NCBI GenBank assembly: GCA_964592405.1
Contig: CAZQBY010000004.1
Location: 73,660-101,521, forward strand
Length of the DNA stretch: 27,862 bases
Reading direction: 5' to 3'
Origin: an uncultured archaeon
GTDB taxonomy: Archaea; Altiarchaeota; Altiarchaeia; JAFGQM01
Shown here: positions 2,440 through 26,747 of the stretch, piece after piece
Layout: each line of letters begins with the position of its first letter
Numbering within the stretch: position 1 is the first letter of the stretch
The notes under the pieces: generated by a model
Told to the model about the DNA's origin: nothing
The model's database searches: none
The model's input: only the letters and a program-made list of their open reading frames with translations
Program-made: the position numbers and the translations under genes

Positions 2440-3081
2440 GTGATATCCAAGAACCGGGAAGATTACCTGAAGGCAATATTTGTGCTCAGTGCTGAGAAGA
2501 ACCGCACGGTCAAGACCAAAGAGCTTGCCCATATTCTAGGGGTCTCCAGTGCAAGTGTTACAGAGATGATAAGAAAATTGGTGGAAGACGGCTTAGTGGA
2601 GAATGAACCATATCACGGCTTTTCCCTTACAAAGAGTGGTATAACCAGAGCGCTTTACATTTTGAGGAAACACCGCCTGCTTGAGAAGTTTTTGGTCGAG
2701 ACCCTTGGCCTGCCGAAAGCACAGGTCCATGCGCAGGCGCATCGCTTGGAGCATGTGGTCTCTGATGAGCTACTCGATAGGATTGACTGCCTTCTCAAGA
2801 GTCCCTGCTACTGTCCACATGAGAGCAGAATACCATCAAAGGATACCAAGGTCGCCAGTCTTGCTGATCTACAGCCGGATTCAGAGGCGAGGCTGGTTTT
2901 TTCCAAGCTCAGGGCAGGCAAGATCCTAGACCGCCTGAATTCCATGGGGCTTGTGCCAGATGCTAGGATAAGGGTATTGCGGAAGCTAAGAAAGGGCCCC
3001 ATGCTCATTATGGTTAAGGGCAGTGAGATAGCTCTTGACAAGAGCATCGCTTCGCAGTTCTATGTGGAGGTTTATTCATGA
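2440..3081 (+). CDS. DtxR/MntR-family metal-dependent transcriptional regulator with C-terminal FeoA (SH3-like) domain
   Basis: EDYLKAI, LGVSSASVTEMIRKL (HTH), RKHRLLEKFL, AHRLEH, CPH, and C-terminal RLNSMGLVPDARIRV...GPMLIMVKGSEIAL (FeoA-like). Confidence 0.93.
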   Translation: MISKNREDYLKAIFVLSAEKNRTVKTKELAHILGVSSASVTEMIRKLVEDGLVENEPYHGFSLTKSGITRALYILRKHRLLEKFLVETLGLPKAQVHAQAHRLEHVVSDELLDRIDCLLKSPCYCPHESRIPSKDTKVASLADLQPDSEARLVFSKLRAGKILDRLNSMGLVPDARIRVLRKLRKGPMLIMVKGSEIALDKSIASQFYVEVYS

Positions 3082-5051
3082 GATGGCACATGCGCGGGGG
3101 TAAACATAGAAAACATCAGCAGCGGCTCCATATAGCACTGGTCGGCAATCCCAATGTCGGCAAGAGTTGCCTGTTTAATCATCTAACTGGCATGGGAGTT
3201 GATGTCGCCAACTATCCCGGGACAACAGTCGAGCTATACCGCGGCAGAACCCGGTGTGGGGATGTACATATCGATATAGTAGATCTTCCAGGCGCCTACG
3301 CGACCAGCAACCACTCCATTGAGGCGAGTGTAGTCAGGGACTATCTCTCAAATGACCGGCCTGATGTTGTCATAAATGTAGTGGATGCCAACCTGCTCGA
3401 CAGGAATCTCTACCTCACTCTGCAGTTGCTTGAGATGGGTCTTCCAACAGTAATAGCGCTTAACTTCTATGAAGAATGCAGGGATTGCGGCATAGAGATA
3501 GATACAGCTGGTCTCAGTAGGGAACTTGGCGTGCCGGTGATAGAAATTGACGCCCTCAGAGGTGCTGGTATATCCGAGCTCATGGAAGCGGCTATTGCTG
3601 TTGCGGAGAATCGGCCTACGCCGAGGAGGTTGAGCTATGATGACCACATAGAGGATGCGATAGCCGGAATCTCTAAGATAATACACTTTCGGACATCCAT
3701 GCCAAAGAGGTATTTTTCTATATTACTCCTGCAGGATGACAAGCACGCTTGGCGAATACTTGACTCTAACTGCCCTAGATGTGGCGACGAAGCACGGAGG
3801 ATAATCCGCAAGAAGAGCAAACACTATGACCTGCCGACAGAGGTTGCCCGTGAGCGCCATAGCCAGGCTGCGGTGATAGCCCGGGCAGTCAAAAGGGAGA
3901 AAAAACCTGATTATTCCAACAGTGAGCGACTTGACAGAATAACAACCGAGCCGCTGTCGGGAACAGTGGTAATGTTACTTGTCCTGTTCACATTGTTCTC
4001 ATCTCTCTTCTTTTTTGGAGGTTTTCTTGAAGGGGTGATAGTGAATGCCTTCGAAGGCTTTGTAGCCCCTGTCCTACAGCCGGCCATACAATCTGTCCAG
4101 AACTTGGCTCTCCAAAAGACATTGGAATATTCCCTTATATGGGGCTTGGAGGCAGGGCTATCTATAGCTATCCCTTACATACTCGTATTCTATTTCATAT
4201 TAGCCTTCTTGGAAGATACAGGCTATCTGCCGAGGATGAGTTACCTGCTGGATCGCATCATGCACAAGATAGGCCTGCACGGGAAAGCAATAGTTCCGAT
4301 GATGCTCGGCTTCGGCTGTAGCGTCCCGGCGATAATATCCACCCGCCTGCTCCAGAATCAGCGAGAGCGTTTGATAACCGCAACACTGGTCTCGTTGATA
4401 CCATGCTCCGCACGCACTGCCATAATCTTGGGGGCTGTGGGCTTCTATCTAGGGTGGTCATATGCACTATCAATATATGCCATACTCTTGGGCATAATAC
4501 TGGCAGTTGGTTTCTTCCTAGGCAGGTATCTCCCTGGTGAGCCCGAGGGCCTTATCATGGAGATGCCAAAATACCGGATGCCCTCTCTAATCTCTCTTAT
4601 GAAGAAGACTTGGATACGGATGAAGGGCTTCATCTACATAGCATTTCCCCTGCTTGTAATAGGTTCGGGCATATTGGGTCTCTTGGAAGGCTTGGGGGTC
4701 CTGAGAGCAATAACTGCTCCTTTCAGCCCACTCGTTTCCGGCTGGCTTATGCTTCCCTCTGTGACCGGAGTGGCCCTCATATATGGCGTGCTTAGAAAAG
4801 AAATGGCTCTTGAAACGATACTGGTCCTCGCCGGCACAGCGAACCTCCTAACATTTATGACACCTCTACAGATATACATATTTGCCCTTGTTTCCTCCAT
4901 CTATATACCCTGCATCGCCACGATAGGCGTCTTGGTGAGGGAATTCGGCTGGAGGAGGAGCGTGATGATATCAACTGTTACAGTACTCATAGCATTTCTT
5001 GCCGGCGGGACTGTGGCAAGAGTCTTCCCAATGCTCGGCCTGCTAGTTTAG
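3078..5051 (+). CDS. feoB: Ferrous iron transport protein B
   Basis: G1 GNPNVGKS, G2 NYPGTTVE, G3 DLPG, RNLYLTLQL; membrane part LEDTGYLPR, GFGCSVPA, IPCSAR, IMEMPKYRMP, YIPCIAT. ATGA overlap with the regulator. Confidence 0.96.
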   Translation: MRWHMRGGKHRKHQQRLHIALVGNPNVGKSCLFNHLTGMGVDVANYPGTTVELYRGRTRCGDVHIDIVDLPGAYATSNHSIEASVVRDYLSNDRPDVVINVVDANLLDRNLYLTLQLLEMGLPTVIALNFYEECRDCGIEIDTAGLSRELGVPVIEIDALRGAGISELMEAAIAVAENRPTPRRLSYDDHIEDAIAGISKIIHFRTSMPKRYFSILLLQDDKHAWRILDSNCPRCGDEARRIIRKKSKHYDLPTEVARERHSQAAVIARAVKREKKPDYSNSERLDRITTEPLSGTVVMLLVLFTLFSSLFFFGGFLEGVIVNAFEGFVAPVLQPAIQSVQNLALQKTLEYSLIWGLEAGLSIAIPYILVFYFILAFLEDTGYLPRMSYLLDRIMHKIGLHGKAIVPMMLGFGCSVPAIISTRLLQNQRERLITATLVSLIPCSARTAIILGAVGFYLGWSYALSIYAILLGIILAVGFFLGRYLPGEPEGLIMEMPKYRMPSLISLMKKTWIRMKGFIYIAFPLLVIGSGILGLLEGLGVLRAITAPFSPLVSGWLMLPSVTGVALIYGVLRKEMALETILVLAGTANLLTFMTPLQIYIFALVSSIYIPCIATIGVLVREFGWRRSVMISTVTVLIAFLAGGTVARVFPMLGLLV

Positions 5052-17196: not shown

Positions 17197-18159
17197 CTAT
17201 TTAAGTGAATCCTTATAGAACTCATACACATCGTTGGATGCAATTGCGAAGTTCAGACCTTCAACATCCTGATATACTCCCCTTCTGCTCCTGCTTATAC
17301 CAAATGAACTCAGTCCTATCACGCTCCCACTTTTGTCTATGAGTGGCCCTCCCGAGTTCCCATGGGTTATGGCTGCGTCTGTCTGGATCACCGTAACCCT
17401 TGGGGACAGGTCTAGGTCCAGCCCCACATCCTTCTTTATCTGCCGGACCGTCCTGACGGCACTGACTATCCCCTCACTGGCTGAGAAGGCAAATCCTTCT
17501 GGTGCCCCCAAGGCGAATACCTTGCTCCCTGAGGCTACCAGATCCGAATCCGCGAACTCCAGATATGGAGTATTCTGCAGCTTTGCCTTCAGCAGTGCCA
17601 CATCTGCGTCTCCATCTCTGGCCTCAACAGCGGCTACATATATGTTCCCATCCCGGGTTTTGATTCTAATGGTTTTGCCCTTGAACAACTCCACAATATG
17701 GTCCGCCGTTAGTATATACCCATCCTCGGATGCTATAAATCCGGACCCTACAACAGATTCCTTGTCTGTCCATATTACCAGCACAACAGCATTCAGGGCC
17801 TTGTCTATAATGCCCGTATAGTTGAGCTCGGACAGTATGTTCTGTATACCTGCCCGGCTCTCCTCACTTACCCTCTGCACTTCTCCGCCCAGCTGCTCTA
17901 TGAGCATGTTCATTATCCCAATATTCTGGGCGTTCTCTTCCAGCCCGGTATTCAGGGAAGTGATATTGTCAGACATCTTCTGAAAACTCTGGGAGGCTCT
18001 GGCATCCAGCTCCCGGAGATTGGAACTCAGGGCATTCACCCTGTTGCTTACATTGCTTATCTGTGATGTCAGCATGGCATACATAGTGATAAACATAACC
18101 AGATTGACAGCTATTGCTACAATTATCAGGAACTGGGCGCGTTTGATATGATGCTCCAT
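17197..18159 (-). CDS. Trypsin-like (HtrA/S1C) serine protease, N-terminal TM and coiled coil, no PDZ domain
   Basis: GSGFI, ILTADH (His), DVALL (Asp), IQTDAAITHGNSGGPL (Ser), GLNFAI. Confidence 0.92.
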   Translation of the reverse strand: MEHHIKRAQFLIIVAIAVNLVMFITMYAMLTSQISNVSNRVNALSSNLRELDARASQSFQKMSDNITSLNTGLEENAQNIGIMNMLIEQLGGEVQRVSEESRAGIQNILSELNYTGIIDKALNAVVLVIWTDKESVVGSGFIASEDGYILTADHIVELFKGKTIRIKTRDGNIYVAAVEARDGDADVALLKAKLQNTPYLEFADSDLVASGSKVFALGAPEGFAFSASEGIVSAVRTVRQIKKDVGLDLDLSPRVTVIQTDAAITHGNSGGPLIDKSGSVIGLSSFGISRSRRGVYQDVEGLNFAIASNDVYEFYKDSLK

Positions 18160-18197
18160 CGTGGATACTTACGGCAGATTTTTAATAAATCCTTTTT

Positions 18198-18219
18198 TGC
18201 GCATATGCGCATTTTTATA
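18198..18219 (+). promoter_or_regulatory. Perfect 14-bp palindrome TGCGCATATGCGCA (18198-18211) abutting TATA box TTTTTATA (18212-18219)
   Basis: Seen directly; TATA lies about 27-30 nt before ATG 18246 of the DUF134 gene. Confidence 0.7.
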
Positions 18220-18245
18220 GAAGCAGTTTCTAATATAGGCATATA

Positions 18246-18704
18246 ATGGGCCGCTTTGCAAGAGGGCGTGGACGACCCAGAATGCATAGGATAGTTGGCC
18301 AGAAACCGGGGGCAGATTATTTCAAACCGGCCGGCATCCCGCTTCCGGAGCTTGATGTGGTTGTCCTGACAGTTGAGGAGGTGGAGGCCCTGAGGCTCGT
18401 GGACTTTGAAGGGCTTGAGCAGGAGACGGCGGCCGAGAAGATGGGTATCTCCCGGAAAACGCTCTGGAGGGAACTCCAGTCTGCGCGCAAAAAAGTCGCA
18501 GACGCCCTCGTGAATGGTAAGGCTATTCAAATCAAAGGAGGTAACTACAAAATGGCTGGAAGAGGAAGGATGGGCGGCTTTGGCCTGGGCCCTGGAGGGA
18601 ACTGCGTATGCCCCAGCTGTGGCTATACGGAGACTCATATCAGGGGCGTACCATGCTATCAGAAGACCTGTCCCAAATGCGGGTCCAAGATGACTAGGGG
18701 TTAA
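18246..18704 (+). CDS. DUF134 (UPF0251) HTH DNA-binding protein with C-terminal Cys-rich module
   Basis: RPR...YFKPAGIP...[59 protein letters not shown]; tail [12 protein letters not shown]...[14 protein letters not shown]. Confidence 0.92.
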
Positions 18705-18723
18705 AAATCAAAAAACGATAAAA

Positions 18724-19083
18724 ATGCCAGCAGGAGATGGAACAGGCCCCGATGGTAGGGGCGGATGGTGCACACCGCTCTGGATGAGCGGGCAGATCCC
18801 GAGGCCCTTGGGGGGCATCGGATTTGGCAGAGGTAGCTATGGGAGAAGAGCTCCCGGCACAGGCGGCAGGGGTAGAGGGCGGATGAACATGTTCTATGCC
18901 ACCGGACAGCCGGGATGGGCTAGGACATGGCTGACACAGCCCACAGTATCTGCACCACAGCCTGTGGAGGTAGCGACGGCAGACAAGGACCATGCGATAG
19001 GGTTCCTGAAGAACCAGATTGATTCACTTGAGCAGCAATTGGCGGATGCGAAGAAGAGGCTTGAGGAGTTAGAGAAAAAATGA
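18724..19083 (+). CDS. DUF5320 family protein
   Basis: MPAGDGTGP start, Gly/Arg-rich middle, MFYATGQPGWAR, C-terminal coiled coil LKNQIDSLEQQLADAKKRLEELE. Confidence 0.85.
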   Translation: MPAGDGTGPDGRGGWCTPLWMSGQIPRPLGGIGFGRGSYGRRAPGTGGRGRGRMNMFYATGQPGWARTWLTQPTVSAPQPVEVATADKDHAIGFLKNQIDSLEQQLADAKKRLEELEKK

Positions 19084-19550
19084 AAATTGCAGTGGCAACT
19101 ATACAGGGCGGACTGGATGATAGTATCTCCCCGGTCATGGGCAGATGTGCCAGCTTCACCATAGTTGAGGTAGAGGGGGAAGAGATAAAGAGGACAGAGA
19201 TTGTGAATAACGAGTTCGCGGCTGCCATGGGTGGGGCAGGCATACAAGTCGCTCAGTTGCTGGTTAACCAAGGTGTAGAGGTAGTGATAGCCGGTAATTT
19301 TGGTCCAAATGCCTTCAATATACTAAACCAAGCTGGCGTTAAGGCCGTCCGGGCCCAGGGGAACGTGAAGGAAGCAGTGCTCAAGTATGTTAAAGGCGAG
19401 CTGGAGCCAATTGACTCTGCCAGTGTTGGCATGTTCGGCGGAATGGGCCGTGGAATGGGCCGTGGAATGGGCCGTGGAATGGGCCGTGGAATGGGCCGTG
19501 GCGGTTTTAGAGGAGGTCATGGAGGCGGAAGAGGCCGTGGAAGAATATGA
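19080..19550 (+). CDS. NifB/NifX-family (Nitro_FeMo-Co fold) protein with GMGR-repeat tail
   Basis: MKIAVAT...GRCASFTIVE...GGAGIQVAQLL...VVIAGNFGPNAFNIL. Confidence 0.9.
   Translation: MKIAVATIQGGLDDSISPVMGRCASFTIVEVEGEEIKRTEIVNNEFAAAMGGAGIQVAQLLVNQGVEVVIAGNFGPNAFNILNQAGVKAVRAQGNVKEAVLKYVKGELEPIDSASVGMFGGMGRGMGRGMGRGMGRGMGRGGFRGGHGGGRGRGRI
19440..19501 (+). repeat. 12-bp tandem repeat GGAATGGGCCGT x5 (coding GMGR)
   Basis: Five identical units at 19440, 19452, 19464, 19476 and 19488. Confidence 0.95.
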
Positions 19551-19903
19551 AAATAGCGATACCATCTTCTGATGCTTCAGGCCTGGATTCGAGGATATTC
19601 CCTCACTTCGGCAGGTGCCCATTCTATACGCTAGTGGACATAGAGTCGGGCAGGGTTGCTATACTGCCCAATACCAGCATACATTTCGGCGGCTTCAAAA
19701 GCCCACCAGAGCTTCTGCTGGATAAAGGGGTCACAGTGCTCATCTGCAAGGATTTGGGCGAAAAGGCTGTGTCCCTCTTTCAGGACGCGGGTATAGACGT
19801 GTACATCGGAGCCAGAGGAGTCGTCAAAGAGGCGATTGAGGCCTGGAAAAGGGGTGAACTTGAAAAGCCATCGGATGAATATGTCTGCGAAGGGCATAGA
19901 TAA
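19547..19903 (+). CDS. NifB/NifX-family protein
   Basis: MKIAIPS...PHFGRCPFYTLVD...LICKDLGEKAVSLFQDAGIDVY; ends in CEGH. Confidence 0.9.
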   Translation: MKIAIPSSDASGLDSRIFPHFGRCPFYTLVDIESGRVAILPNTSIHFGGFKSPPELLLDKGVTVLICKDLGEKAVSLFQDAGIDVYIGARGVVKEAIEAWKRGELEKPSDEYVCEGHR

Positions 19904-21164
19904 GACCAGGACCCTGGATAGGGTTAGAAAAGCGAAGCTAAGTTTAAAAGAGGGCGAGCGGGCAGCCTTGCTTTCCTCCTGGGTTACGGCACTCCTGGCA
20001 GTGTCCAAGGGACTGGCCGGCTTCCTCTCCGGTAGTGTAGCTCTGCTGGCAGATGCTCTGCATTCCTTCTCAGACATCTTTGGCAGTGCGGCGGTGTGGC
20101 TGGGCCTTCGCATCGCCCAGAGAAAACCGACGGACAGATTCCCATATGGCTATTACAGGGCGGAGAACCTGGCTTCACTCGTCGTTTCCGTTATTGTGAT
20201 ATTAACTGGATTGGGCATCTTTTTGGAAGGCTACGATTCGTTTGTGAATCCAAGCTCTTTGGACATGCCGTTTTTGGGCCTAGCAGTGGCCTTTTTGTCA
20301 ATACTGACCTCTTTCGGACTTGCCGTCTACAAAAACAAAACCGGCAGGAGGATAAAATCTCAGGCCCTGCTCATAGATTCAAAGCACTCCATGGCGGATG
20401 TCTTCTCATCTGTGATAGTCTTTGGCGGAATATTCGCTTCTATAGCCGGCTTTTCCGGCGTGGAGGGTATAGCCGGCATGCTAATTGCGGTGCTGGTGAT
20501 CCTGATGGGGGCATGGAGCACAAAGAACACAGTCCTTGTCCTTATGGATGCCTGGACCGATCCGCTTCTGGAGGAAAGGATTGTCAGAAGCATCAGGACT
20601 GTGAGAGGAGTGAGGGATATCCACGAACTAAAACTAAGGAAATCTGGCTCCTTTATTATGGGCGAGGCCCATGTAGAAGTGGAGGGGACCATGTCTGTAG
20701 AAAAGGCAGATGACATACGCAGAGAAATCGAGATGAAGCTAAAGAAAAAGGTAGAGCGTCTGGATTCAATACTCCTTCAGATAGAGCCCTCCAAATTGCT
20801 TAGATTCAGACTTGCGGTACCTGTCTCAGAGGACAGGGGTTTGGACTCCAAGCCCAGCGGCCACTTCGGGAAATCCCCATATTTCGCCTTCGTGGATCTG
20901 GACAATGGGAAGATAAAGCAGGTAGTGATTAAGAAGAACCCGGCCGCAAAGCTTGAGAAGCGGATTGGTGTAGAGGCCGCGAATTTCATAATAGACAATA
21001 AGGCGGATATAATTGCAGCCGCGGGCATTGGTGAGTCTCCATTTCACATCCTGAGGAGCAATCTGATGCGCATCCTTGTAATTGAGGGCGATACCCTTAG
21101 GGATGTCATAGAAAAGATGTTAAGAAATGAGCTTAAACACCACAGAGAACCTGAAAGAAAATGA
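19881..21164 (+). CDS. Cation diffusion facilitator (FieF-like) fused to a C-terminal NifB/NifX domain
   Basis: SGSVALLADALHSFSD, FPYGYYRAENL, SQALLIDSKHSMAD, cytosolic IHELKLRKSG, then LAVPVSEDRGLDS...HFGKSPYFAFVD. Start uncertain (ATG 19875 or 19881). Confidence 0.92.
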   Translation: MSAKGIDKTRTLDRVRKAKLSLKEGERAALLSSWVTALLAVSKGLAGFLSGSVALLADALHSFSDIFGSAAVWLGLRIAQRKPTDRFPYGYYRAENLASLVVSVIVILTGLGIFLEGYDSFVNPSSLDMPFLGLAVAFLSILTSFGLAVYKNKTGRRIKSQALLIDSKHSMADVFSSVIVFGGIFASIAGFSGVEGIAGMLIAVLVILMGAWSTKNTVLVLMDAWTDPLLEERIVRSIRTVRGVRDIHELKLRKSGSFIMGEAHVEVEGTMSVEKADDIRREIEMKLKKKVERLDSILLQIEPSKLLRFRLAVPVSEDRGLDSKPSGHFGKSPYFAFVDLDNGKIKQVVIKKNPAAKLEKRIGVEAANFIIDNKADIIAAAGIGESPFHILRSNLMRILVIEGDTLRDVIEKMLRNELKHHREPERK

Positions 21165-21418
21165 ATCCTGAATTGAATATGACTGCCTTGACGGCCGGAA
21201 TAATATTTGTATTCAGCCTGATATTCTGGCTGACATCAAAGGACGAAAAGTGCTGGTATAGACGATATATGCTTCCGCTGATGGTAGCCTCCCTGGCATT
21301 GGTCCTGCCCGGCTGGTGGACCAAGCTGGCAGTGATAATTTCTGCTGCACTGATATATGACGGTTATCAAGGCTACGGCAGGAAGCTGAGGACCGAAAAG
21401 AAAGAAACAACACAATAA
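21161..21418 (+). CDS. Small membrane protein (85 aa, about 3 TM helices)
   Basis: ATGA overlap upstream, 1-nt gap downstream, three hydrophobic stretches. Confidence 0.7.
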   Translation: MNPELNMTALTAGIIFVFSLIFWLTSKDEKCWYRRYMLPLMVASLALVLPGWWTKLAVIISAALIYDGYQGYGRKLRTEKKETTQ

Positions 21419-21419
21419 C

Positions 21420-22247
21420 ATGAAGCAAATAGCGGTAACAGGAGGCAAGGGGGGCACGGGCAAGTCCACATTTGCAATACTCCTGACATCCAAGCTGATG
21501 AAGCAGGGAAAGAAGGTCGTCCTGTGCGATGCGGATGTTGAGTGTCCCAATGACCACCTCATACTCGGGGTTGATTTGAAGGAGCCAAAGACTATCTACC
21601 AGGATTTTCCAGTCATAGATGATGAAAAGTGCACCCGGTGTGATAAATGCGTCGAGAACTGCAGGTTCAATGCGCTCTTCCGCATAGGCGATCAAGCGCC
21701 TCAGGTAGTCAGGAACCTCTGCTGTGGATGCGGCCTCTGCTGGGGAATATGCCCCGAGAATGCCATCAGTTCAGAGAAGGAGCCCTGCGGGGAATCCTTT
21801 GCCAGCAGGATTTCGGATGGCTTCTGGCTTGTAACCGGAAGATCACTGGCAGGGGTTGAGGAAACCGGGCCCATAGTACTTGAGACCAAGAGAAGGGCCA
21901 TTGAGCTGGCACGGAAAGTCAGGGCAGATTTCCTTATAGTTGATACTGCAGCCGGCACACATTGTAGTGTAATAAACGCTCTCACCAACTCTGAGCTTGC
22001 ATATGTAGTAACCGAACCAACCCCACTGGGGGCACATGATTCAAGACAGATAATCAGGCTTTTGAATATAATCAATATTCCGGTCGAGCTGGTCCTGAAC
22101 AAGTCGGGTGTGGCCAATGACAAGATCATCGAACGGATTGCAGAAGAATTTGATGTCAAAATAGGTTACAGAATTCCCTACTCCGAGGAGCTGGTAAGAG
22201 CGTATTCCACAGGGCGGCTAAAGGAGTTCAAGCTAAGATGGAAATAA
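21420..22247 (+). CDS. MinD/ParA-superfamily P-loop ATPase with inserted 2x[4Fe-4S] ferredoxin domain (COG1149-like)
   Basis: GGKGGTGKS, DADVECPN, CTRCDKCVENC, CCGCGLCWGICP, DTAAGTHC, VTEPTP. Confidence 0.92.
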   Translation: MKQIAVTGGKGGTGKSTFAILLTSKLMKQGKKVVLCDADVECPNDHLILGVDLKEPKTIYQDFPVIDDEKCTRCDKCVENCRFNALFRIGDQAPQVVRNLCCGCGLCWGICPENAISSEKEPCGESFASRISDGFWLVTGRSLAGVEETGPIVLETKRRAIELARKVRADFLIVDTAAGTHCSVINALTNSELAYVVTEPTPLGAHDSRQIIRLLNIINIPVELVLNKSGVANDKIIERIAEEFDVKIGYRIPYSEELVRAYSTGRLKEFKLRWK

Positions 22248-23038
22248 CGATATTGGTCGAGGACACCGCGAAGCCCGGAAGCGGACTGATAAGCGAGCAC
22301 GGTTTTTCGGCATTCGTTGAGTTCGGGGATAAGACTATACTATTTGACACTGGACAGTCTGATGCCTTCATAAAAAACGCCGGGAAGCTGGGAATAGACC
22401 TTGATTTGACGGATTTCGTGGTGATAAGCCATGGTCATTATGACCACACCGACGGCCTGCCACATCTTATGAAGAGCTTCGACGCCAAGGAGATAACATT
22501 CGTCTCGCATCCTGGCATCTTTGGAGACAAGCTCCACGGAAGCAGGAACTTCATAGGCTGTCCCCTCAGCAGGGCAGAGGTGGAATCGAGCTTCAGGAAC
22601 TCCGTGTTCGCCAGTAGCCCGATTGAGTTCACTCCAGGTGCCACCTTCTTGGGGGAGGTGCCCAGGACTTATGAAGACCCGGGCACATGCGGAGACCATG
22701 TCGTGGCTGGCGCCGAGCAGCCGGACCCCGTGTCCGACGACTCCGCCGTTGCCTTCAAGACCAGGAAGGGCATCGTAGTGCTGACGGGCTGCTCCCATTC
22801 AGGCATATTGAACATCGTGAAGGGGGCGGAGAAGCTGGGCGACATTTATGGAGTAATCGGCGGCTTCCATCTCTGGGGCGCAAGCAAGGAGAGGCTGGAC
22901 AAGATAATAACCACGTTTCGGAAGATGGGTATAAAGGAGCTGCGGCCTGGCCACTGCACAGGCTCCGGGGCCATTGGGAGGATGGAGCTGGAGCTGGGTG
23001 CCAGGAGAATCACAACTGGGGAGGTAATCAGGATATGA
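22238..23038 (+). CDS. Metallo-beta-lactamase-fold protein (COG1237/MJ0301-like)
   Basis: EHGFS, LFDTG, ISHGHYDHTDG, TGCSHSG, GGFHL, PGHCTG. Confidence 0.92.
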   Translation: MEITILVEDTAKPGSGLISEHGFSAFVEFGDKTILFDTGQSDAFIKNAGKLGIDLDLTDFVVISHGHYDHTDGLPHLMKSFDAKEITFVSHPGIFGDKLHGSRNFIGCPLSRAEVESSFRNSVFASSPIEFTPGATFLGEVPRTYEDPGTCGDHVVAGAEQPDPVSDDSAVAFKTRKGIVVLTGCSHSGILNIVKGAEKLGDIYGVIGGFHLWGASKERLDKIITTFRKMGIKELRPGHCTGSGAIGRMELELGARRITTGEVIRI

Positions 23039-23883
23039 AAATAGCAGTAGCATCTGGGAAGGGTGGAGTCGGGAAGTCCATGGTGGCTTCAGCCTTGGCG
23101 ATGCTCTTTGCGAGGGAGAAAAGGATTGTTGCTCTGGATTGTGATGTTGACGCCCCGGATCTGGGCATATGGCTGGGCATCGGTGAGCTGGGCCGAGGTG
23201 AGAGAATATCAACATCAGAGAAGGCAGTCATAGACTACAACAAGTGCATAAACTGTGGCAAGTGTGCTCAAGTATGCAGGTTCGGCGCGATGGAGTTTGA
23301 TGGAAAACCAAGGCTTCTGCCTTATCTCTGCGAGGGTTGCGGCGCCTGCGAGGTGTTCTGCCCTGTCGGTGCAATACATCAGGAAGCGGTCAAAAATGGG
23401 GAAATTATCACAAAAGAGACCAAATATGGCTTTCCACTGGTAACAGGTCTCCTCTATCCCGGGGAGACCGGCTCCGGCAAGGTCGTGACTGAACTAAAAC
23501 AGAGGGCTGAGAAGTTCGAGCACGATGTAATGATACTGGATTCTGCGGCCGGGATAGGCTGCCCCGTCATAGCATCGCTCAATGGTGCCGATTACGCCGT
23601 CTTGGTAACAGAGCCAACCCCCTCCGGCTTTTCTGACCTGCAAAGAGTTCTGGAGATTGTCAACCATTTCAAAATCCCATACGGCGTGGTGATAAACAAG
23701 TGGGACATAAACAAGAGGATGAGTGCAGAGATTGAGAAGTGGGCAGGCAACAAGTTGCTCGGAAAACTGCCCTTCGACAGGGGGATTTTCGTGTCGGTAT
23801 CAGAACTCAGGCCGGTTATGGAAGGCAATTCTGCAGTAGTCGCTGAAATGAAAGGCATATTTAAAAAGCTTATGCAATCATGA
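23035..23883 (+). CDS. Second MinD-like P-loop ATPase with ferredoxin insert (COG1149-like), 282 aa
   Basis: MKIAVASGKGGVGKS, DCDVDAPD, CINCGKCAQVC, CEGCGACEVFCP, DSAAGIGCPVIAS, VTEPTPSG. Start reassigned to ATG 23035 (ATGA overlap). Confidence 0.92.
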   Translation: MKIAVASGKGGVGKSMVASALAMLFAREKRIVALDCDVDAPDLGIWLGIGELGRGERISTSEKAVIDYNKCINCGKCAQVCRFGAMEFDGKPRLLPYLCEGCGACEVFCPVGAIHQEAVKNGEIITKETKYGFPLVTGLLYPGETGSGKVVTELKQRAEKFEHDVMILDSAAGIGCPVIASLNGADYAVLVTEPTPSGFSDLQRVLEIVNHFKIPYGVVINKWDINKRMSAEIEKWAGNKLLGKLPFDRGIFVSVSELRPVMEGNSAVVAEMKGIFKKLMQS

Positions 23884-24413
23884 TCGGCAATAACCCAGAC
23901 AACGATTGGATTATGCCGGAAATAGAATACAAACCGATAGGGATTATCCATTCTCCTTTCAAGAAGGTTAGGGGGACACCCATACAGGCAGAAAGTGCCA
24001 AGGGTGTTGAAGGGACAGTTGAAGTATTTCCTGAATATTCTGAAGGATTAAAAGGTATAGAGGGGTTTTCACATCTTATACTAATCTACCATTTCCACAT
24101 GTCCGGCAAAGCGTCTTTGACCGTAATCCCTTATATGGACATCCATCCACACGGGGTATTTGCGACAAGGGCACCCTCCCGCCCAAACCCAATAGGTTTG
24201 TCAGTAGTGGGCCTTACAGGAGTTGAGGGAAATATCCTCCATGTCCGCGACATAGATGTCATAGAGGGTACTCCCCTTCTGGACATCAAGCCTTATGTGC
24301 CGGAATTTGATGTGAGGGATGCTGAGAGAATAGGATGGCTCGAAAAGAACATACAGAAGCTCTCAAAATCAACAGATGATGGAAGATTTACAAATGGCGG
24401 GATGATAAAATGA
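23880..24413 (+). CDS. tsaA: TsaA/TrmO-family protein (tRNA t6A37 N6-methyltransferase-like, SAM-binding beta-barrel)
   Basis: PIGIIHSPF, GFSHLILIYHFH, GVFATRAPSRPNPIGLS, GTPLLDIKPY. Alternative start ATG 23913. Confidence 0.9.
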   Translation: MIGNNPDNDWIMPEIEYKPIGIIHSPFKKVRGTPIQAESAKGVEGTVEVFPEYSEGLKGIEGFSHLILIYHFHMSGKASLTVIPYMDIHPHGVFATRAPSRPNPIGLSVVGLTGVEGNILHVRDIDVIEGTPLLDIKPYVPEFDVRDAERIGWLEKNIQKLSKSTDDGRFTNGGMIK

Positions 24414-25018
24414 AGCCGCATGAGACAAGGAATTATCTGGATTTCTACAAGACGCATCTTGGGCATGAGATATTAAGGAGGGAGGCCGGCTACGTGCGCG
24501 CATGGCTGGGTGATTGTGAAAGGATACTGGATGTCGGCTGCGGGCCGGGCGTCTTTGAAAAGGAACTGCAGGACATGGACATTACAGGAATTGATGCCTC
24601 CCCGGAGATGATAAAACTGGCCGGCGAGAACTCCGGAAACCGGTTTATCATTGGAAGGGCCGAAGAGCTGCCATTTTCTGACTCCTCTTTTGATGGTGTG
24701 TTTTTCATTACTTCGCTTGAGTTCACACAGGATTATGGGAAAAGTCTGGATGAGGCAGCAAGGGTCCTGAAGGAGGGCGGGAAGATACTGATTCTTATGC
24801 TGAACCCAGAATCGCAGTACTTCAGGGAAAAACTGAAAAAGGGCAGTTATATAGCCACTAATATCAAACATACTGATTTGAATGCGATAAAGGATTATTC
24901 ATCAAAGAAATTTGACATAACAGTAGAGTATCTCTTGGGCATAAGGGGCAAAGAGGTGTTTGTGTCCAAGGATCCAAGATATGCCAGTCTTTATGTCATA
25001 AAGGGTATCAAAAGATGA
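24410..25018 (+). CDS. Class I SAM-dependent methyltransferase (Methyltransf_11-like)
   Basis: ILDVGCGPG, ITGIDASPEM, GRAEELPFSDSSFD, RVLKEGG. Confidence 0.9.
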   Translation: MKPHETRNYLDFYKTHLGHEILRREAGYVRAWLGDCERILDVGCGPGVFEKELQDMDITGIDASPEMIKLAGENSGNRFIIGRAEELPFSDSSFDGVFFITSLEFTQDYGKSLDEAARVLKEGGKILILMLNPESQYFREKLKKGSYIATNIKHTDLNAIKDYSSKKFDITVEYLLGIRGKEVFVSKDPRYASLYVIKGIKR

Positions 25019-25794
25019 AAACAGTCTACGGCCCGGTGCCGTCCTGGAGGCTTGGCAGGTCATTGGGGGTGGACCCCGTCTGCGCGCGGGAGAAGACCTG
25101 CTCTTTTGACTGCGTCTATTGCCAGCTGGGGAGAACAATACATAAGACAGACCAACGAAGGATATTTGTAAGCACAAAAGATGTTGCAAGAGATCTAGAA
25201 CAGATCCTTCCAAAGGTGGAGGCCGATATAATAACGTTCTCCGGCACTGCCGAGCCGACCTTGGCAGGCAACTTGAGCGAGATTGTTGACACTGTGAGGA
25301 AAATCTCGGATTTGCCGCTGGCAATACTGACCAACTCCTCCCTGATAAACCGGAAGGATGTTAGAGCTGACCTGTCAGGATTCGATGTTGTTGTCGCAAA
25401 GCTGGATGCGCCCAATCAAAGCCTGTTTGGGAAGATAAACCGGCCCATTGCCAGTGTGGCATTTGATGAGATGCTTGACGGGATAGAGGCTTTCAGGGAT
25501 GAGTTCAGCGGAAAGCTGGCCCTGCAGATGATGTTCATAGACAAGAACAAGGCCCATGCGAAGGAAATGGCTGCTGTGGCAAGGGAGATAAAACCAGACG
25601 AGGTGCAGATAAACACACCTCTCAGACCATGTCCCGTGAGGGCTCTTCCACCTCATGACCTGATCCACATCACATCTGATTTCCACGGACTCAGGACAGT
25701 CTCTGTCTATGAGGCCAAGAGGCCGGACGTCTCCATGGATGACATAAGGGAGGTCAGAAGAAGGAGGCCGCCCCGCAAAGACGGAAGCTTTTGA
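25015..25794 (+). CDS. Radical SAM protein (COG0731-like, related to the TYW1 radical SAM domain)
   Basis: YGPVPSWRLGRSLGVD, CSFDCVYC (CxxxCxxC), ITFSGTAEPTL, LTNSSL, VQINTPLRP. Confidence 0.9.
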   Translation: MKTVYGPVPSWRLGRSLGVDPVCAREKTCSFDCVYCQLGRTIHKTDQRRIFVSTKDVARDLEQILPKVEADIITFSGTAEPTLAGNLSEIVDTVRKISDLPLAILTNSSLINRKDVRADLSGFDVVVAKLDAPNQSLFGKINRPIASVAFDEMLDGIEAFRDEFSGKLALQMMFIDKNKAHAKEMAAVAREIKPDEVQINTPLRPCPVRALPPHDLIHITSDFHGLRTVSVYEAKRPDVSMDDIREVRRRRPPRKDGSF

Positions 25795-25834
25795 ATAGAA
25801 AACACCTAAAAACAAAACACCAAAACAACTGAAA

Positions 25835-26089
25835 ATGACCGGAGAGCACGAGGGAAGGGAGAACCTTACGGAAGAAACAAAAAATCTGGAGAGGGCAAGG
25901 CAGTCGCTTATCGAGGAGCTGGAGGCGATAAACCGGTATCAGGAGAGAGTGGAGGCTACCAAGGACGCGGAGCTGAAGAAACTGCTGGAGCACAACCGCG
26001 ACGAGGAGAAAGAGCACGCAGCGATGCTAATCGAGTATCTGCGCAAGAGAGACAAGACTCAAGACAGGATGTTCGAGGAGCACGACTGA
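25835..26089 (+). CDS. Encapsulin-associated-type ferritin-like protein (half four-helix bundle), 84 aa
   Basis: RARQSLIEELEAINRYQER...LEHNRDEEKEHAAML, closely matching the EncFtn ferroxidase signature (EELEA..Y..R / HNRDEEKEH). Confidence 0.88.
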   Translation: MTGEHEGRENLTEETKNLERARQSLIEELEAINRYQERVEATKDAELKKLLEHNRDEEKEHAAMLIEYLRKRDKTQDRMFEEHD

Positions 26090-26123
26090 TGGTATTTGTA
26101 TATCTTGCCCCTAAAATATCCCT

Positions 26124-26747
26124 ATGCCACCAAAGCCTCATAGGAGAGCGGTCCTTCTGACTCCCGATGGCAGGCCAAGAACCGGGGCATTTGTCAATAT
26201 ACATGAGAGCAGGCTGGCTGGGAGCGCCCATAGCATAGTCGAGCGCGGCTCTCATGAGGGCAAGCCGGTCATCCTTCGTCGGCCCGAAAACAGATTTGGC
26301 ATACGCATGCTTGTCATGAGCCACGTACTCAATGAGCATCTGAGGAAGCATGGCTTTCCGGTGCCAGAGCTGAACGCCCTTGCACTTGTTCAGGGGGAGT
26401 CTGGCCACAGGAAGCTGGCGCATGTCATGGATGACCTGACGGAGGGTGGAAGGCTGGAGGCTGTCACGATGTTCAAGGATGGATGGGAACTGATGCCTTC
26501 TGCACGATTGTCTCCAAATATCGCAAGATTCGAGAGAGAGGCCCTGCAGCACAAAGCTAGGGCAGAGGCAATGGGATTTAAATTCAGGGGTCCAGAATTT
26601 ATGCTCGTCAGGGATCCGGAAACCAAGAGGATTGTGAGAATCGCCATAACGGACACTAAGACAGTCGATGGACATGGCGAGCACTGGGATGAAGTTATGC
26701 GTAAGTACACCTTCTTGGATAATGCCGTAAGGGGGAAGCTGCACTAA
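26124..26747 (+). CDS. Hypothetical protein with degenerate protein-kinase-like motifs
   Basis: 207-aa ORF; motif order LAGSAHSIVERG, GKPVILRR, GFPVP, VMDDL, PEFMLV, IAITD. Confidence 0.6.
   Translation: MPPKPHRRAVLLTPDGRPRTGAFVNIHESRLAGSAHSIVERGSHEGKPVILRRPENRFGIRMLVMSHVLNEHLRKHGFPVPELNALALVQGESGHRKLAHVMDDLTEGGRLEAVTMFKDGWELMPSARLSPNIARFEREALQHKARAEAMGFKFRGPEFMLVRDPETKRIVRIAITDTKTVDGHGEHWDEVMRKYTFLDNAVRGKLH

Follow-up and report, generated by a model that had tools for sequence, protein, structure and literature searches.

What a tightly packed row of genes for metal-, iron-sulfur- and S-adenosylmethionine (SAM)-dependent proteins does in an archaeon without a recognisable nitrogenase is the question raised by a 27,862-nucleotide stretch of an uncultured altiarchaeal genome (contig CAZQBY010000004.1 of assembly GCA_964592405.1), referred to below as the window. 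Thirteen of its genes (g1 to g13, positions 18246-26089) were proposed in an initial annotation to form an uncharacterised system that senses, builds or carries, exports and stores a metal or metal-sulfur species independently of nitrogenase. This interpretation is partly supported by our analysis: nitrogenase independence, co-occurrence of the genes in other genomes, the metal and redox context and the ties of the SAM enzymes to the core through gene fusions were upheld, whereas the uncharacterised core, the single unit of 13 genes and the iron store were not. Judged by sequence, the core is the gene set of the ORP complex together with an IssA-like protein, a variant of published and partly studied systems rather than a new one (PMC6345978, PMC5524996). 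We consider it probable, with some reserve, that the locus is an archaeal member of the ORP/IssA family, an operon under its own control whose products buffer iron or iron-sulfur (metal-sulfide) material, pass it on and export it. Anaerobes have been known to carry ORP genes since 2011, and IssA has been known since 2017; the role of the ORP system has yet to be settled, and little is understood of how anaerobic archaea handle Fe-S (PMC6345978, PMC8351635).

A compact operon in a small archaeal genome

All 13 open reading frames (ORFs) listed for the window between 18246 and 26089 are densely packed and co-oriented on the plus strand, as had been annotated, and seven of their junctions are the 4-base ATGA overlaps reported before (at 19080, 19547, 21161, 23035, 23880, 24410 and 25015). 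The remaining junctions measure +19 (g1/g2), +1 (g6/g7), -10 (g7/g8) and +40 nt (g12/g13), and g4 and g5 overlap by 23 nt if g5 starts at 19881 (-23 or -29 by the start chosen); the start of g5 is probably this ATG (427 aa, the form in the protein collection) instead of the TTG at 19836. The genome comprises 1.13 Mb on 22 contigs and is 87% complete. Its 16S gene matches the archaeal model over the full model length (1477 bits), genes for Alba and DUF460 proteins are present in the window, and archaeal metagenome-assembled genomes (MAGs) are the source of the closest relatives of the radical SAM protein g12. The 13 genes form a genuine, compact operon, and the archaeon that carries it has a small genome.

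Pfam and NCBIfam scans together with motif checks agree with the domains that had been assigned to the cluster, namely DUF134, DUF5320, three NifX-fold domains, a cation diffusion facilitator (CDF), two ATPases each with two 4Fe-4S motifs, a metallo-beta-lactamase (MBL)-fold protein, TsaA, a methyltransferase, a radical SAM protein and a ferritin-like protein. No match to nitrogenase D/K (PF00148) was found in the 87%-complete genome, and the NifH model (PF00142) gave weak cross-matches only (at most 52 bits), in line with the absence of nifHDK noted earlier and supporting an operon that is independent of nitrogenase.

An ORP-type core with an IssA-like protein

All three PF02579 (NifX-fold) matches of the genome lie inside the cluster, in g3, g4 and the C-terminus of g5. 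The protein encoded by g3 (19080-19550, +; PF02579, 79 bits) consists of a NifX-fold domain (residues 1-108) followed by a 48-aa cationic tail with pI 12.0, 21 Gly, 9 Arg, 6 Met, no Cys and the motif (GMGR)x5; the tail (window 19404-19550) reads as five exact GMGR repeats, then GGFRGGHGGGRGRGR, and is Met-rich rather than aromatic. By its architecture g3 is IssA-like, and it may bind thioferrate. Its best solved relative is MTH1175 (1eo1, E 3.6e-23), the ORP protein 2wfb being weaker (E 2.5e-11). Directly downstream, g4 (19547-19903, +; PF02579, 70 bits) is a NifX-fold protein without tail, in which H20, H46, C67, C114 and H117, conserved in a 19-sequence alignment, are candidate cluster ligands; its HFGRC ... 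CEGH pattern resembles the CxHFGHCE ... CDH of the Fe-S-binding Di-Nase domain of MrpORP (PMC6345978). The DUF5320 protein g2 (18724-19083, +; PF17253, 35 bits) has an N-terminal part of 75 aa that is cationic and Gly/Arg-rich (pI 11.7) and an acidic C-terminal part of 44 aa that looks helical or coiled-coil by eye.

Two further genes, g7 (21420-22247, +; CbiA, ParA and Fer4 matches) and g9 (23035-23883, +; CbiA/MinD-type and Fer4 matches, motifs), encode MinD/Mrp-class ATPases with an inserted 2x[4Fe-4S] ferredoxin, which we call A-type (the first of the pair, Orp3/Orp4-like) and B-type, respectively. Their Walker A motifs are GKGGTGKS and GKGGVGKS, and each carries two CxxCxxCxxxC motifs. 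Walker A, the eight ferredoxin cysteines and one further cysteine are invariant in both families (C182 of g7 in 29 first-of-pair sequences, C176 of g9 in 29 second-of-pair sequences), and the second-of-pair ATPase always scores higher against g9 than against g7. The extra cysteine stands in a motif after the Walker B aspartate (G-T-x-C / G-I-G-C-P-V) and may be a ligand at a dimer interface. No solved structure was found that covers the whole ATPase-ferredoxin architecture. The MrpORP model NF041136, annotated as an iron-sulfur cluster carrier protein, is the top NCBIfam match of g7 and the sole match of g3 and g4, and it pointed us to the ORP complex; g9 and g5 match the model too, all at 25-63 bits and far below its cut-off of 450.

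Conservation of the core and an accessory gene pool

Conservation was surveyed in 41 genomes of the same class, in which 17 loci from 16 genomes other than the host's own were recovered and their ORFs compared with 14 proteins of the window. DUF5320 is present in 17 of the 41 genomes, the host included; in control genomes, DUF5320 and PF02579 were also detected in Methanosarcina acetivorans and Thermotoga maritima. Many contigs of these loci end inside the cluster, so that the following counts are lower bounds. NifX-fold proteins were found in 16 and DUF134 in 15 of the 17 loci, followed by the methyltransferase (nine, and one more in fused form in L043), the pair of ATPase-ferredoxin genes (eight, with three more loci holding one of them), the MBL-fold protein (seven) and the radical SAM protein (six). 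The EncFtn-like protein and the small membrane protein g6 occur in three loci each and TsaA in two; the CDF exporter and g14, the gene that follows g13, occur in none. Gene order varies among families, and a third, Mrp-like ATPase is present in many related loci. The 13 genes are a core with an accessory pool of modules rather than one fixed unit; the low counts of CDF (0/17), TsaA (2/17), EncFtn and g6 (3/17 each) do not bear out the idea of a single conserved block.

A Pfam scan of the 107 unlabelled neighbours in the 17 loci detected thioredoxins (five loci), glutaredoxin-like proteins (three), PF01910 'Thiamine_BP' (five), ZIP transporters, a second radical SAM protein, AhpD-like CMD and J-domain proteins (three each), DtxR (two, once together with two FeoA genes, in L032, right beside the ORP-type cluster), NikR (two) and DUF89/ARMT1 (two), and, once each, an ABC-3 transporter, a P-type ATPase, CGGC, DsrE and a peroxiredoxin. 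The context of the cluster is metal transport, metal sensing and thiol redox, and the metal context that had been read from the window alone thus recurs in the transporters, regulators and thiol-redox proteins encoded beside the cluster elsewhere. An NrdD gene beside the cluster in L034 and L043 was considered as a further link and not counted, these being two genomes of one genus. In L029, the ORP-type cluster contains inserted transposase genes of the IS110 family (L029:285-1315 and L029:8210-9241), of which one is intact and the other apparently split.

The linkage was also approached from the radical SAM protein. An alignment of seven radical SAM proteins retrieved 576 relatives in contigs with one genome per species; the best 80 of the 576 loci, from many archaeal and bacterial phyla, were used, and partner genes were scored with hidden Markov models built from the class homologues among ORFs within 10 kb. 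NifX-fold proteins occur in 32 of these 80 loci and Orp3/4-type ATPases in 26 (22 with two of them); 34 loci have at least one of the two kinds and 24 have both. Less frequent partners are the MBL-fold protein (22 loci), DUF134 and DUF5320 (11 each), TsaA (nine), the methyltransferase (four) and CDF (two), and 35 loci have no partner gene, ten of these with full 10-kb flanks. As a rough estimate, such a cluster would be met in a random 20-kb stretch with a chance of ~1-2%, assuming ~1 cluster per genome of 1-3 Mb. Nearly the gene content of the window is found in L124, a locus of a DPANN-type archaeal MAG with, in this order, DUF5320, DUF134 with the same Cys tail, an IssA-like protein, CDF::NifX, ATPase, radical SAM, ATPase and MBL. 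The linkage between the radical SAM protein and the core reaches well beyond the host's own lineage, and the predicted co-occurrence in other genomes is borne out by the 17 class loci and by 34 of the 80 loci anchored on radical SAM.

Which metal the NifX-fold proteins hold bears on a first alternative, a thiometalate or heterometallic system in which they would bind Mo/W-sulfide-Cu or other soft-metal sulfides from sulfidic vent fluid, with the ATPases and the CDF protein detoxifying or trafficking these; its model is the Desulfovibrio orange protein with its [S2MoS2CuS2MoS2] cluster, and we hold it to be unlikely. It would fit the match of g3 to the ORP protein 2wfb, the single Cys of the g3 domain and the Cys-free NifX domain of g5, which suit non-covalent binding, the five GMGR repeats of the g3 tail (Met-rich repeats bind Cu(I)) and the fusion of a metal exporter to a NifX-fold domain in g5. 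Set against this, the 107 neighbours scanned in the 17 class loci included no transporter or regulator for molybdate, tungstate or copper, those that were seen being Fe-, Zn-, Ni- and Mn-type systems, and the physiological relevance of the ORP Mo-Cu cluster has been doubted. Orp8 homologues do hold a Mo-Cu sulfide cluster non-covalently (PMC6345978), but g3 is closer to MTH1175, which has been called an IssA-type protein (PMC5524996), than to ORP.

A putative operator for the DUF134 regulator

The first gene, g1 (18246-18704, +), encodes a DUF134 helix-turn-helix (HTH) regulator (PF02001, 107.3 bits against a gathering score of 27) extended by a Gly-rich linker and a Cys5-His ribbon of the pattern C-x-C-P-x-C-G ... 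H ... P-C ... C-P-x-C-G. In its predicted model (pLDDT 84.6), the HTH occupies residues 43-90, residues 107-116 are disordered and residues 117-152 form a confidently folded small beta ribbon. The HTH core superposes on region 4 of extracytoplasmic function (ECF) sigma factors with 0.6-0.9 Å over 46-49 columns, the Foldseek E-values all being 0.04 or higher, and the fold search gave no whole-chain match at E <= 0.001. The C-terminal 48 aa constitute a family of their own (GRGRMGG..GPGG-C-x-C-P-x-C-G-x4-H-x3-G-x-P-C-x4-5-C-P-x-C-G), and the linker carries a Gly/Arg stretch similar to the tails of g2 and g3. As a stand-alone protein of 49-101 aa the ribbon occurs in 21 ORP-type loci, and the window, L124, L058 and L038 have it joined to DUF134; further DUF134 proteins either lack a tail or carry another ribbon at their end, CxxC...CPxC.

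Upstream of g1, the palindrome and TATA-like box that had been noticed ahead of the cluster are indeed present; their connection to the DUF134 protein was not drawn at the time. The 14-bp perfect palindrome TGCGCATATGCGCA (18198-18211, on neither strand in particular) lies where the B recognition element (BRE) would be and directly abuts the TATA-like box TTTTTATA (18212-18219, +). The ATG of g1 (18246) follows 27 nt after the end of the box and 34 nt after that of the palindrome, which has no second match in the 1.13-Mb genome at up to one mismatch. The position of the transcription start site, and with it the placement of the operator at the BRE/TATA elements of a leaderless promoter, follows from archaeal promoter geometry; the transcript of the operon is probably leaderless.

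Three observations lead us to read the palindrome as the operator of the DUF134 protein: it recurs upstream of ten related loci, it co-varies with the recognition helix, and a variant predicted from the helix was found in four of four loci. The exact sequence TGC-N-CATATG-N-GCA occurs in 10 of the 97 fetched loci, all of them among the 17 loci of the same class, upstream of a DUF134, DUF5320 or IssA-like gene. In seven class loci and the window, the palindrome is directly followed by a TTTATATA-like sequence, and DUF134 starts 21-30 nt downstream of the palindrome in the seven (34 nt in the window). In one genome the regulator and the rest of the operon lie on separate contigs (L036 and L037), each with its own copy of the site. 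When DUF134 proteins were aligned with their sites, five classes were distinguished: the recognition helix SRKTLWRE goes with TGCGCATATGCGCA, SRRT[YF]WRE with TGCTCATATGAGCA, SRRTLAR with TGCCCATATGGGCA, SRPTFHR or SRPTAGR with TG[AG][GA]CATATG.. variants, and SQPT[FL][FH]R with TGAATATA[TA]ATTCA. The variant predicted for the SQPTF-type helix, TGAATATATATTCA, is present exactly in all four such loci (L029, L032, L038 and L058), adjoining DUF134 or DUF5320; its ten exact copies in the 1.37 Mb of fetched loci all fall in loci with ORP-type genes, and the host genome has none. A first operator pattern, G[CT]NCATATGN[GA]C, had no matches in the 80 distant loci and was abandoned as too narrow, other lineages having TG-N3-ATAT-N3-CA variants. 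Very probably, g1 is the repressor of the operon and the palindrome its putative operator. DUF134, which is among the oldest families of 'unknown function', would thereby gain a concrete putative operator, a co-varying recognition helix and a fusion to a putative metal-binding sensor module.

Exporter, hydrolase and ferroxidase-type proteins

The metal exporter g5 (19881-21164, +) is a CDF protein (PF01545; TIGR01297, 234 bits against a cut-off of 82) with the motifs HSFSD and HSMAD in its membrane helices, a ZT_dimer domain (PF16916) and a C-terminal, Cys-free NifX-fold domain (PF02579). Of the best 42 relatives of g5, 39 have this triple fusion, some being named as from Thorarchaeota and Aenigmarchaeota MAGs, and a metal exporter fused to a cluster-carrier domain suggests that export is coupled to cluster status. 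The next gene, g6 (21161-21418, +), encodes an 85-aa hydrophobic protein by composition, with two to three hydrophobic segments and no Pfam or NCBIfam match; its homologues (45-74% identity) lie inside the same cluster in L040, L042 and L045.

An MBL-fold metallo-hydrolase with the motif HGHYDH is encoded by g8 (22238-23038, +; PF00753). The titles of its solved relatives (2p4z, 3h3e (TM1679) and 7dck) name no function. As a lead only, the phage anti-Pycsar Apyc1 family (a cyclic-nucleotide phosphodiesterase) is annotated on 26-79% of the members of look-alike clusters of g8 in the Atlas, and g8 itself has no Pfam match to that family at E <= 0.01.

The last gene, g13 (25835-26089, +), encodes a short EncFtn-like protein of ferroxidase type (PF22277, 101 bits) with EKEH at residues 58-61. 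TIGR04535 matches it with 89 bits against a cut-off of 125 and over profile positions 2-80 of 114; the cargo-peptide end is absent, and the encapsulin shell (PF04454) has no match in the 87%-complete genome. Because both the C-terminal cargo part and a shell are missing, g13 alone is likely unable to store iron, so that of the ferroxidase and store once assigned to the ferritin-like gene the ferroxidase-type identity stands and the storage probably does not. In two loci of different families (L030:10666-11420 and L041:7958-8924), an EncFtn-like gene lies directly upstream of, and overlaps, an IssA-like gene, an order that suggests a ferroxidase-store pair without encapsulin.

The radical SAM module

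Three successive genes encode SAM-using proteins. The first, g10 (23880-24413, +), belongs to the SAM-binding beta-barrel family of TsaA/TrmO N-domain proteins (PF01980, 139 bits; TIGR00104, 142 bits against a cut-off of 93, N-domain); its closest solved relative is AF_0241, which consists of the N-domain only (2nv4, E 4e-30), and no C-terminal TrmO domain was detected in the Pfam and NCBIfam scans. The second, g11 (24410-25018, +), is a class I SAM methyltransferase (PF08241, 81 bits) for which all NCBIfam models stay below their cut-offs. The third, g12 (25015-25794, +; PF04055), is a single-domain radical SAM enzyme with the motif CSFDCVYC (one CX3CX2C, at 29-36, and five Cys in all) and more than 7,500 relatives. 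All of its 15 NCBIfam matches are far below their cut-offs, and it has no sequence relative in the PDB. In searches with its predicted model (pLDDT 95), Foldseek ranks NifB first (E 1.5e-9) with DesII at the same E-value and TYW1, viperin and LipA close behind, and VIA-align gives Z 19.3 for both the pyruvate formate-lyase activase (PFL-AE) and NifB, 18.6 for TYW1 and 18.4 for RlmN; as PFL activase, NifB, TYW1, RlmN and viperin tie, the fold assigns no function.

More is learned from gene fusions. The radical SAM gene is fused to a methyltransferase in L043, and among 29 longer homologues of g12 the additional domain is a class I methyltransferase in 15, PF02579 in two (and in one more by the name given in the source), NifU_N in two and TrmO_N in one; the rest carry PAS/kinase domains (two), a Usp, GNAT or histone-deacetylase domain (three), a larger multi-domain arrangement (one) or no recorded second family (two). 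The methyltransferase g11 is the predicted partner of g12, and fusions to methyltransferase, NifX-fold, IscU-like and TrmO domains support the earlier view that the SAM enzymes are tied to the core. They connect an uncharacterised, very large radical SAM family to a methyltransferase and to Fe-S carrier domains.

A patchwork operon would explain the same genes differently: only g1-g4, g7 and g9 would be of ORP type, and TsaA, the methyltransferase, the radical SAM enzyme and the MBL-fold protein would be co-transcribed housekeeping for RNA/tRNA modification or nucleotide processing, the radical SAM enzyme perhaps as an Fe-S client. We regard this as improbable. It draws on the TrmO model passed by g10, the label COG0731 ('wyosine synthetase') that a single source gives to the radical SAM family, RNase Z and TYW1 among the weak NCBIfam matches, the Apyc1 lead for the MBL-fold protein and the 35 of 80 radical SAM loci without any partner gene. 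Identification of g12 as TYW1 was rejected (25.7 bits on TIGR03972, whose cut-off is 318), and the RNase Z match has 21 bits where 293 would be required; core genes are present in 34 of 80 loci picked by radical SAM similarity alone, across many phyla and in varied gene orders, the radical SAM domain is fused to NifX-fold and NifU_N domains, and in many loci (L046, L122 and L124 among them) the radical SAM gene stands between both ATPase genes, all of which speaks against a mere patchwork.

The fusions would also suit a NifB-like, nitrogenase-independent cofactor pathway, in which the radical SAM enzyme and the methyltransferase would tailor an Fe-S cluster on NifX-fold or IscU-like carriers (e.g., by methylation of sulfide followed by radical chemistry), the ATPase pair would act like NifH and the product would be an unknown complex metallocofactor; we think this quite doubtful. 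The part list does parallel NifB (radical SAM plus NifX domain), NifX and NifH, independent fusions of the radical SAM domain to PF02579, NifU_N and methyltransferase domains are on record, and NifB is the top Foldseek match with a tied top VIA score, but the fold ranking ties with PFL activase, TYW1, RlmN and viperin. NifB needs two extra clusters besides its radical SAM cluster; g12, with five Cys and one CX3CX2C, lacks the ligands for these, and no NifB model is among its NCBIfam matches, on which grounds, together with the tied fold match, g12 was rejected as NifB. Neither a candidate client enzyme nor a NifEN-like scaffold was found in the host genome, and the radical SAM/methyltransferase module is absent from many ORP-type clusters.

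A model of the operon and the evidence against it

For the probable reading as a self-regulated ORP/IssA-type operon, gene content, conservation, fusions and operator-regulator co-variation are observations; that g1 binds DNA, in which direction it regulates, which metal species is handled, that the ATPases form a heterodimer and how each biochemical step proceeds are our inferences. The regulator g1, presumably a dimer, would bind the palindrome abutting the TATA box and block transcription initiation of its own leaderless operon, its Cys5-His ribbon being the part that senses metal or cluster. Metal-free g1 would repress and, once its ribbon is loaded with iron or an Fe-S cluster, would let go of the DNA; this direction is suggested by the storage and export functions that the operon encodes. 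The cationic Gly/Arg stretches of g3 and of the DUF5320 protein g2 could hold an anionic iron-sulfide polymer, g4 with its His/Cys ligands may serve as a carrier, and a g7/g9 heterodimer of Orp3/Orp4 type, with two [4Fe-4S] clusters per ATPase, would drive loading or unloading with ATP and electrons. The cytoplasmic NifX-fold domain of g5 might couple export to the same pool, g13 would contribute a shell-less ferroxidase of EncFtn type, and the radical SAM, methyltransferase, TsaA and MBL-fold proteins may act on the carriers or their cargo.

A more complete version of this reading would be a self-sensing homeostat of iron-sulfide 'mineral' that also carries out cluster-tailoring chemistry. 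Here the shell-less EncFtn ferroxidase would supply Fe(III) to an IssA-like store that replaces the encapsulin shell, the Orp3/4-type Fe-S ATPases would load and unload this store, the CDF pump, gated by its own NifX-fold domain, would export the surplus, and the COG0731-type radical SAM/methyltransferase pair would modify the carried cluster to an organometallic or methylated Fe-S species independently of NifB. Radical SAM and methyltransferase recur fused to each other and to NifX-fold and IscU-like domains. That all of these steps hold jointly we consider a long shot.

Several points weigh against the ORP/IssA-type reading even in its simpler form. The published ORP protein binds a Mo-Cu cluster rather than Fe-S, the window is without the Mrp::NifX fusion that the ORP complex has in Orp9, its cluster containing no Mrp-type gene, and the neighbouring ZIP, CDF and NikR genes would suit Zn or Ni as well as Fe. 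Derepression upon loading is a direction guessed from gene content. The helix-operator classes track kinship, so that few independent events can be counted, and two genomes of the same genus (63% and 80% complete) are without DUF5320. In the radical SAM-anchored test the score thresholds were set by ourselves, the best 80 of the 576 loci favour close relatives of this radical SAM subfamily, and the 35 loci without any partner indicate that the enzyme also works without the core. Nor is there an anti-correlation with SUF: SufBD is present in 11 of the 17 genomes with DUF5320 and in 15 of the 24 without. The SufB/D core (PF01458) gave no match in the host genome (87% complete), in the two genomes of the same genus (63% and 80%) or in two genomes of the genus that we labelled g2 (not to be confused with gene g2), whereas it is present in 26 of the 41 class genomes and matched in each of the 14 control genomes; the ORP-type cluster as a general substitute for SUF was dropped, as SufBD and DUF5320 show no inverse relation across the 41 genomes.

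A role in cell division or positioning, in which the two MinD-like ATPases would place the septum or some structure of the cell and have the metal proteins as accessories, is highly improbable: g7 and g9 belong to the MinD/ParA class and the ORP complex is 'putatively involved in cell division', with polar MrpORP and a MinD-like C-terminal amphipathic helix in Orp3/Orp4 (PMC6345978, PMC3897727), but neither in the window nor among the 107 neighbours scanned in the 17 loci was a division or segregation gene found, the context being metal transport, metal regulation and thiol redox, and two further ordinary CbiA/MinD-type genes are present elsewhere in the genome.

For the ORP/IssA-type reading, the locus offers three testable handles, namely the DUF134 operator, the radical SAM fusions and the CDF::NifX exporter. 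In the accessible literature on DUF134/DUF5320, ORP, IssA and PF02579, with subscription journals largely outside it, we found no publication describing a DUF134 operator or sensor fusion, radical SAM-carrier fusions or CDF::NifX.

Surroundings of the cluster

Downstream of g13, g14 (26124-26747, +) encodes a 207-aa basic protein (pI 10.1, 13 His, 23 Arg) without Pfam or NCBIfam match, and a TATA-like sequence, TTTGTATAT, stands ~25 nt before its ATG. As no homologue of g14 was found across the 97 fetched loci, it probably lies outside the operon. An iron-uptake unit precedes the cluster by some 13 kb (window 2440-5048, +); it consists of a 213-aa fusion of a DtxR-type iron repressor with FeoA and, directly behind it, FeoB (657 aa). 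Between 11882 and 16166, the window contains an HMGL-like synthase with a homocitrate-synthase-type domain (minus strand), a fused large and small aconitase-family protein and an isocitrate/isopropylmalate dehydrogenase, an ordinary set for 2-oxoacid chain extension without relation to the ORP/IssA-type operon. Between 71 and 94% of sampled words of positions 18100-26200 were recovered in three DNA runs, each of a different study and each with the label hydrothermal vent metagenome; one of these runs may have supplied the assembly.

Comparison with known systems

With the NifB/NifX/NifH system the cluster shares the joint encoding of a radical SAM protein, NifX-fold carriers and SIMIBI-class Fe-S ATPases, and some homologues fuse radical SAM to a NifX-fold domain. 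It differs in that nifHDK and nifEN were not found in the 87%-complete genome, that g12 is not NifB by sequence models and has no extra cluster ligands, and that the ATPases carry ferredoxin inserts instead of the subunit-bridging cluster of NifH. The EncFtn/Flp cargo ferritins resemble g13 in the PF22277 domain (101 bits) and the E-x-x-H motif; g13 differs from them in having no C-terminal cargo-peptide part, and a shell gene was not found in the 87%-complete genome. Flp cargo without its shell cannot keep iron soluble (PMC8346489).

IssA of Pyrococcus furiosus (PF2025) is composed of an IPR003731 domain of 109 aa and a 70-aa cationic, Gly-rich, unstructured tail that binds anionic thioferrate (PMC5524996). 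The g3 protein likewise joins an IPR003731/PF02579 domain of ~108 aa to a cationic Gly-rich tail; this tail, unlike that of IssA, has 48 instead of 70 aa, is Met-rich, aromatic-poor and Cys-free, and is missing the proline-rich segment.

The ORP complex of Desulfovibrio vulgaris was compared by published descriptions of its proteins, and by sequence to the solved ORP protein 2wfb only. It includes the paralogues Orp3 and Orp4, either of which has two [4Fe-4S] ferredoxin motifs, Orp5 as the homologue of a [2Fe-2S] protein, Orp8 as that of the Mo-Cu 'orange protein', and Orp9 (MrpORP), an Mrp ATPase fused to the same 'Di-Nase' domain (PMC6345978). ORP genes are restricted to anaerobes, and in Desulfovibrio expression of the orp operons requires a low redox potential (PMC6345978, PMC8359166). 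The paralogous MinD-type ATPases g7 and g9, with two [4Fe-4S] motifs each, correspond to Orp3/Orp4, and the single-domain NifX-fold (Di-Nase, PF02579) proteins g3 and g4 to Orp8; a small Cys-rich metal protein may have a counterpart too, the ribbon fused to g1, a stand-alone protein in 21 ORP-type loci, being a candidate for the place of Orp5. Regulation is different, with a putative DUF134 repressor at an archaeal TATA promoter in the window, where no regulator of the enhancer-binding protein (EBP) type was found among the genes scanned, and sigma-54, OrpR and IHF in D. vulgaris. Beyond the ORP set, the window adds DUF5320, the tailed IssA-like protein, CDF::NifX, the MBL-fold protein, TsaA, the methyltransferase, the radical SAM enzyme and the EncFtn-like protein.

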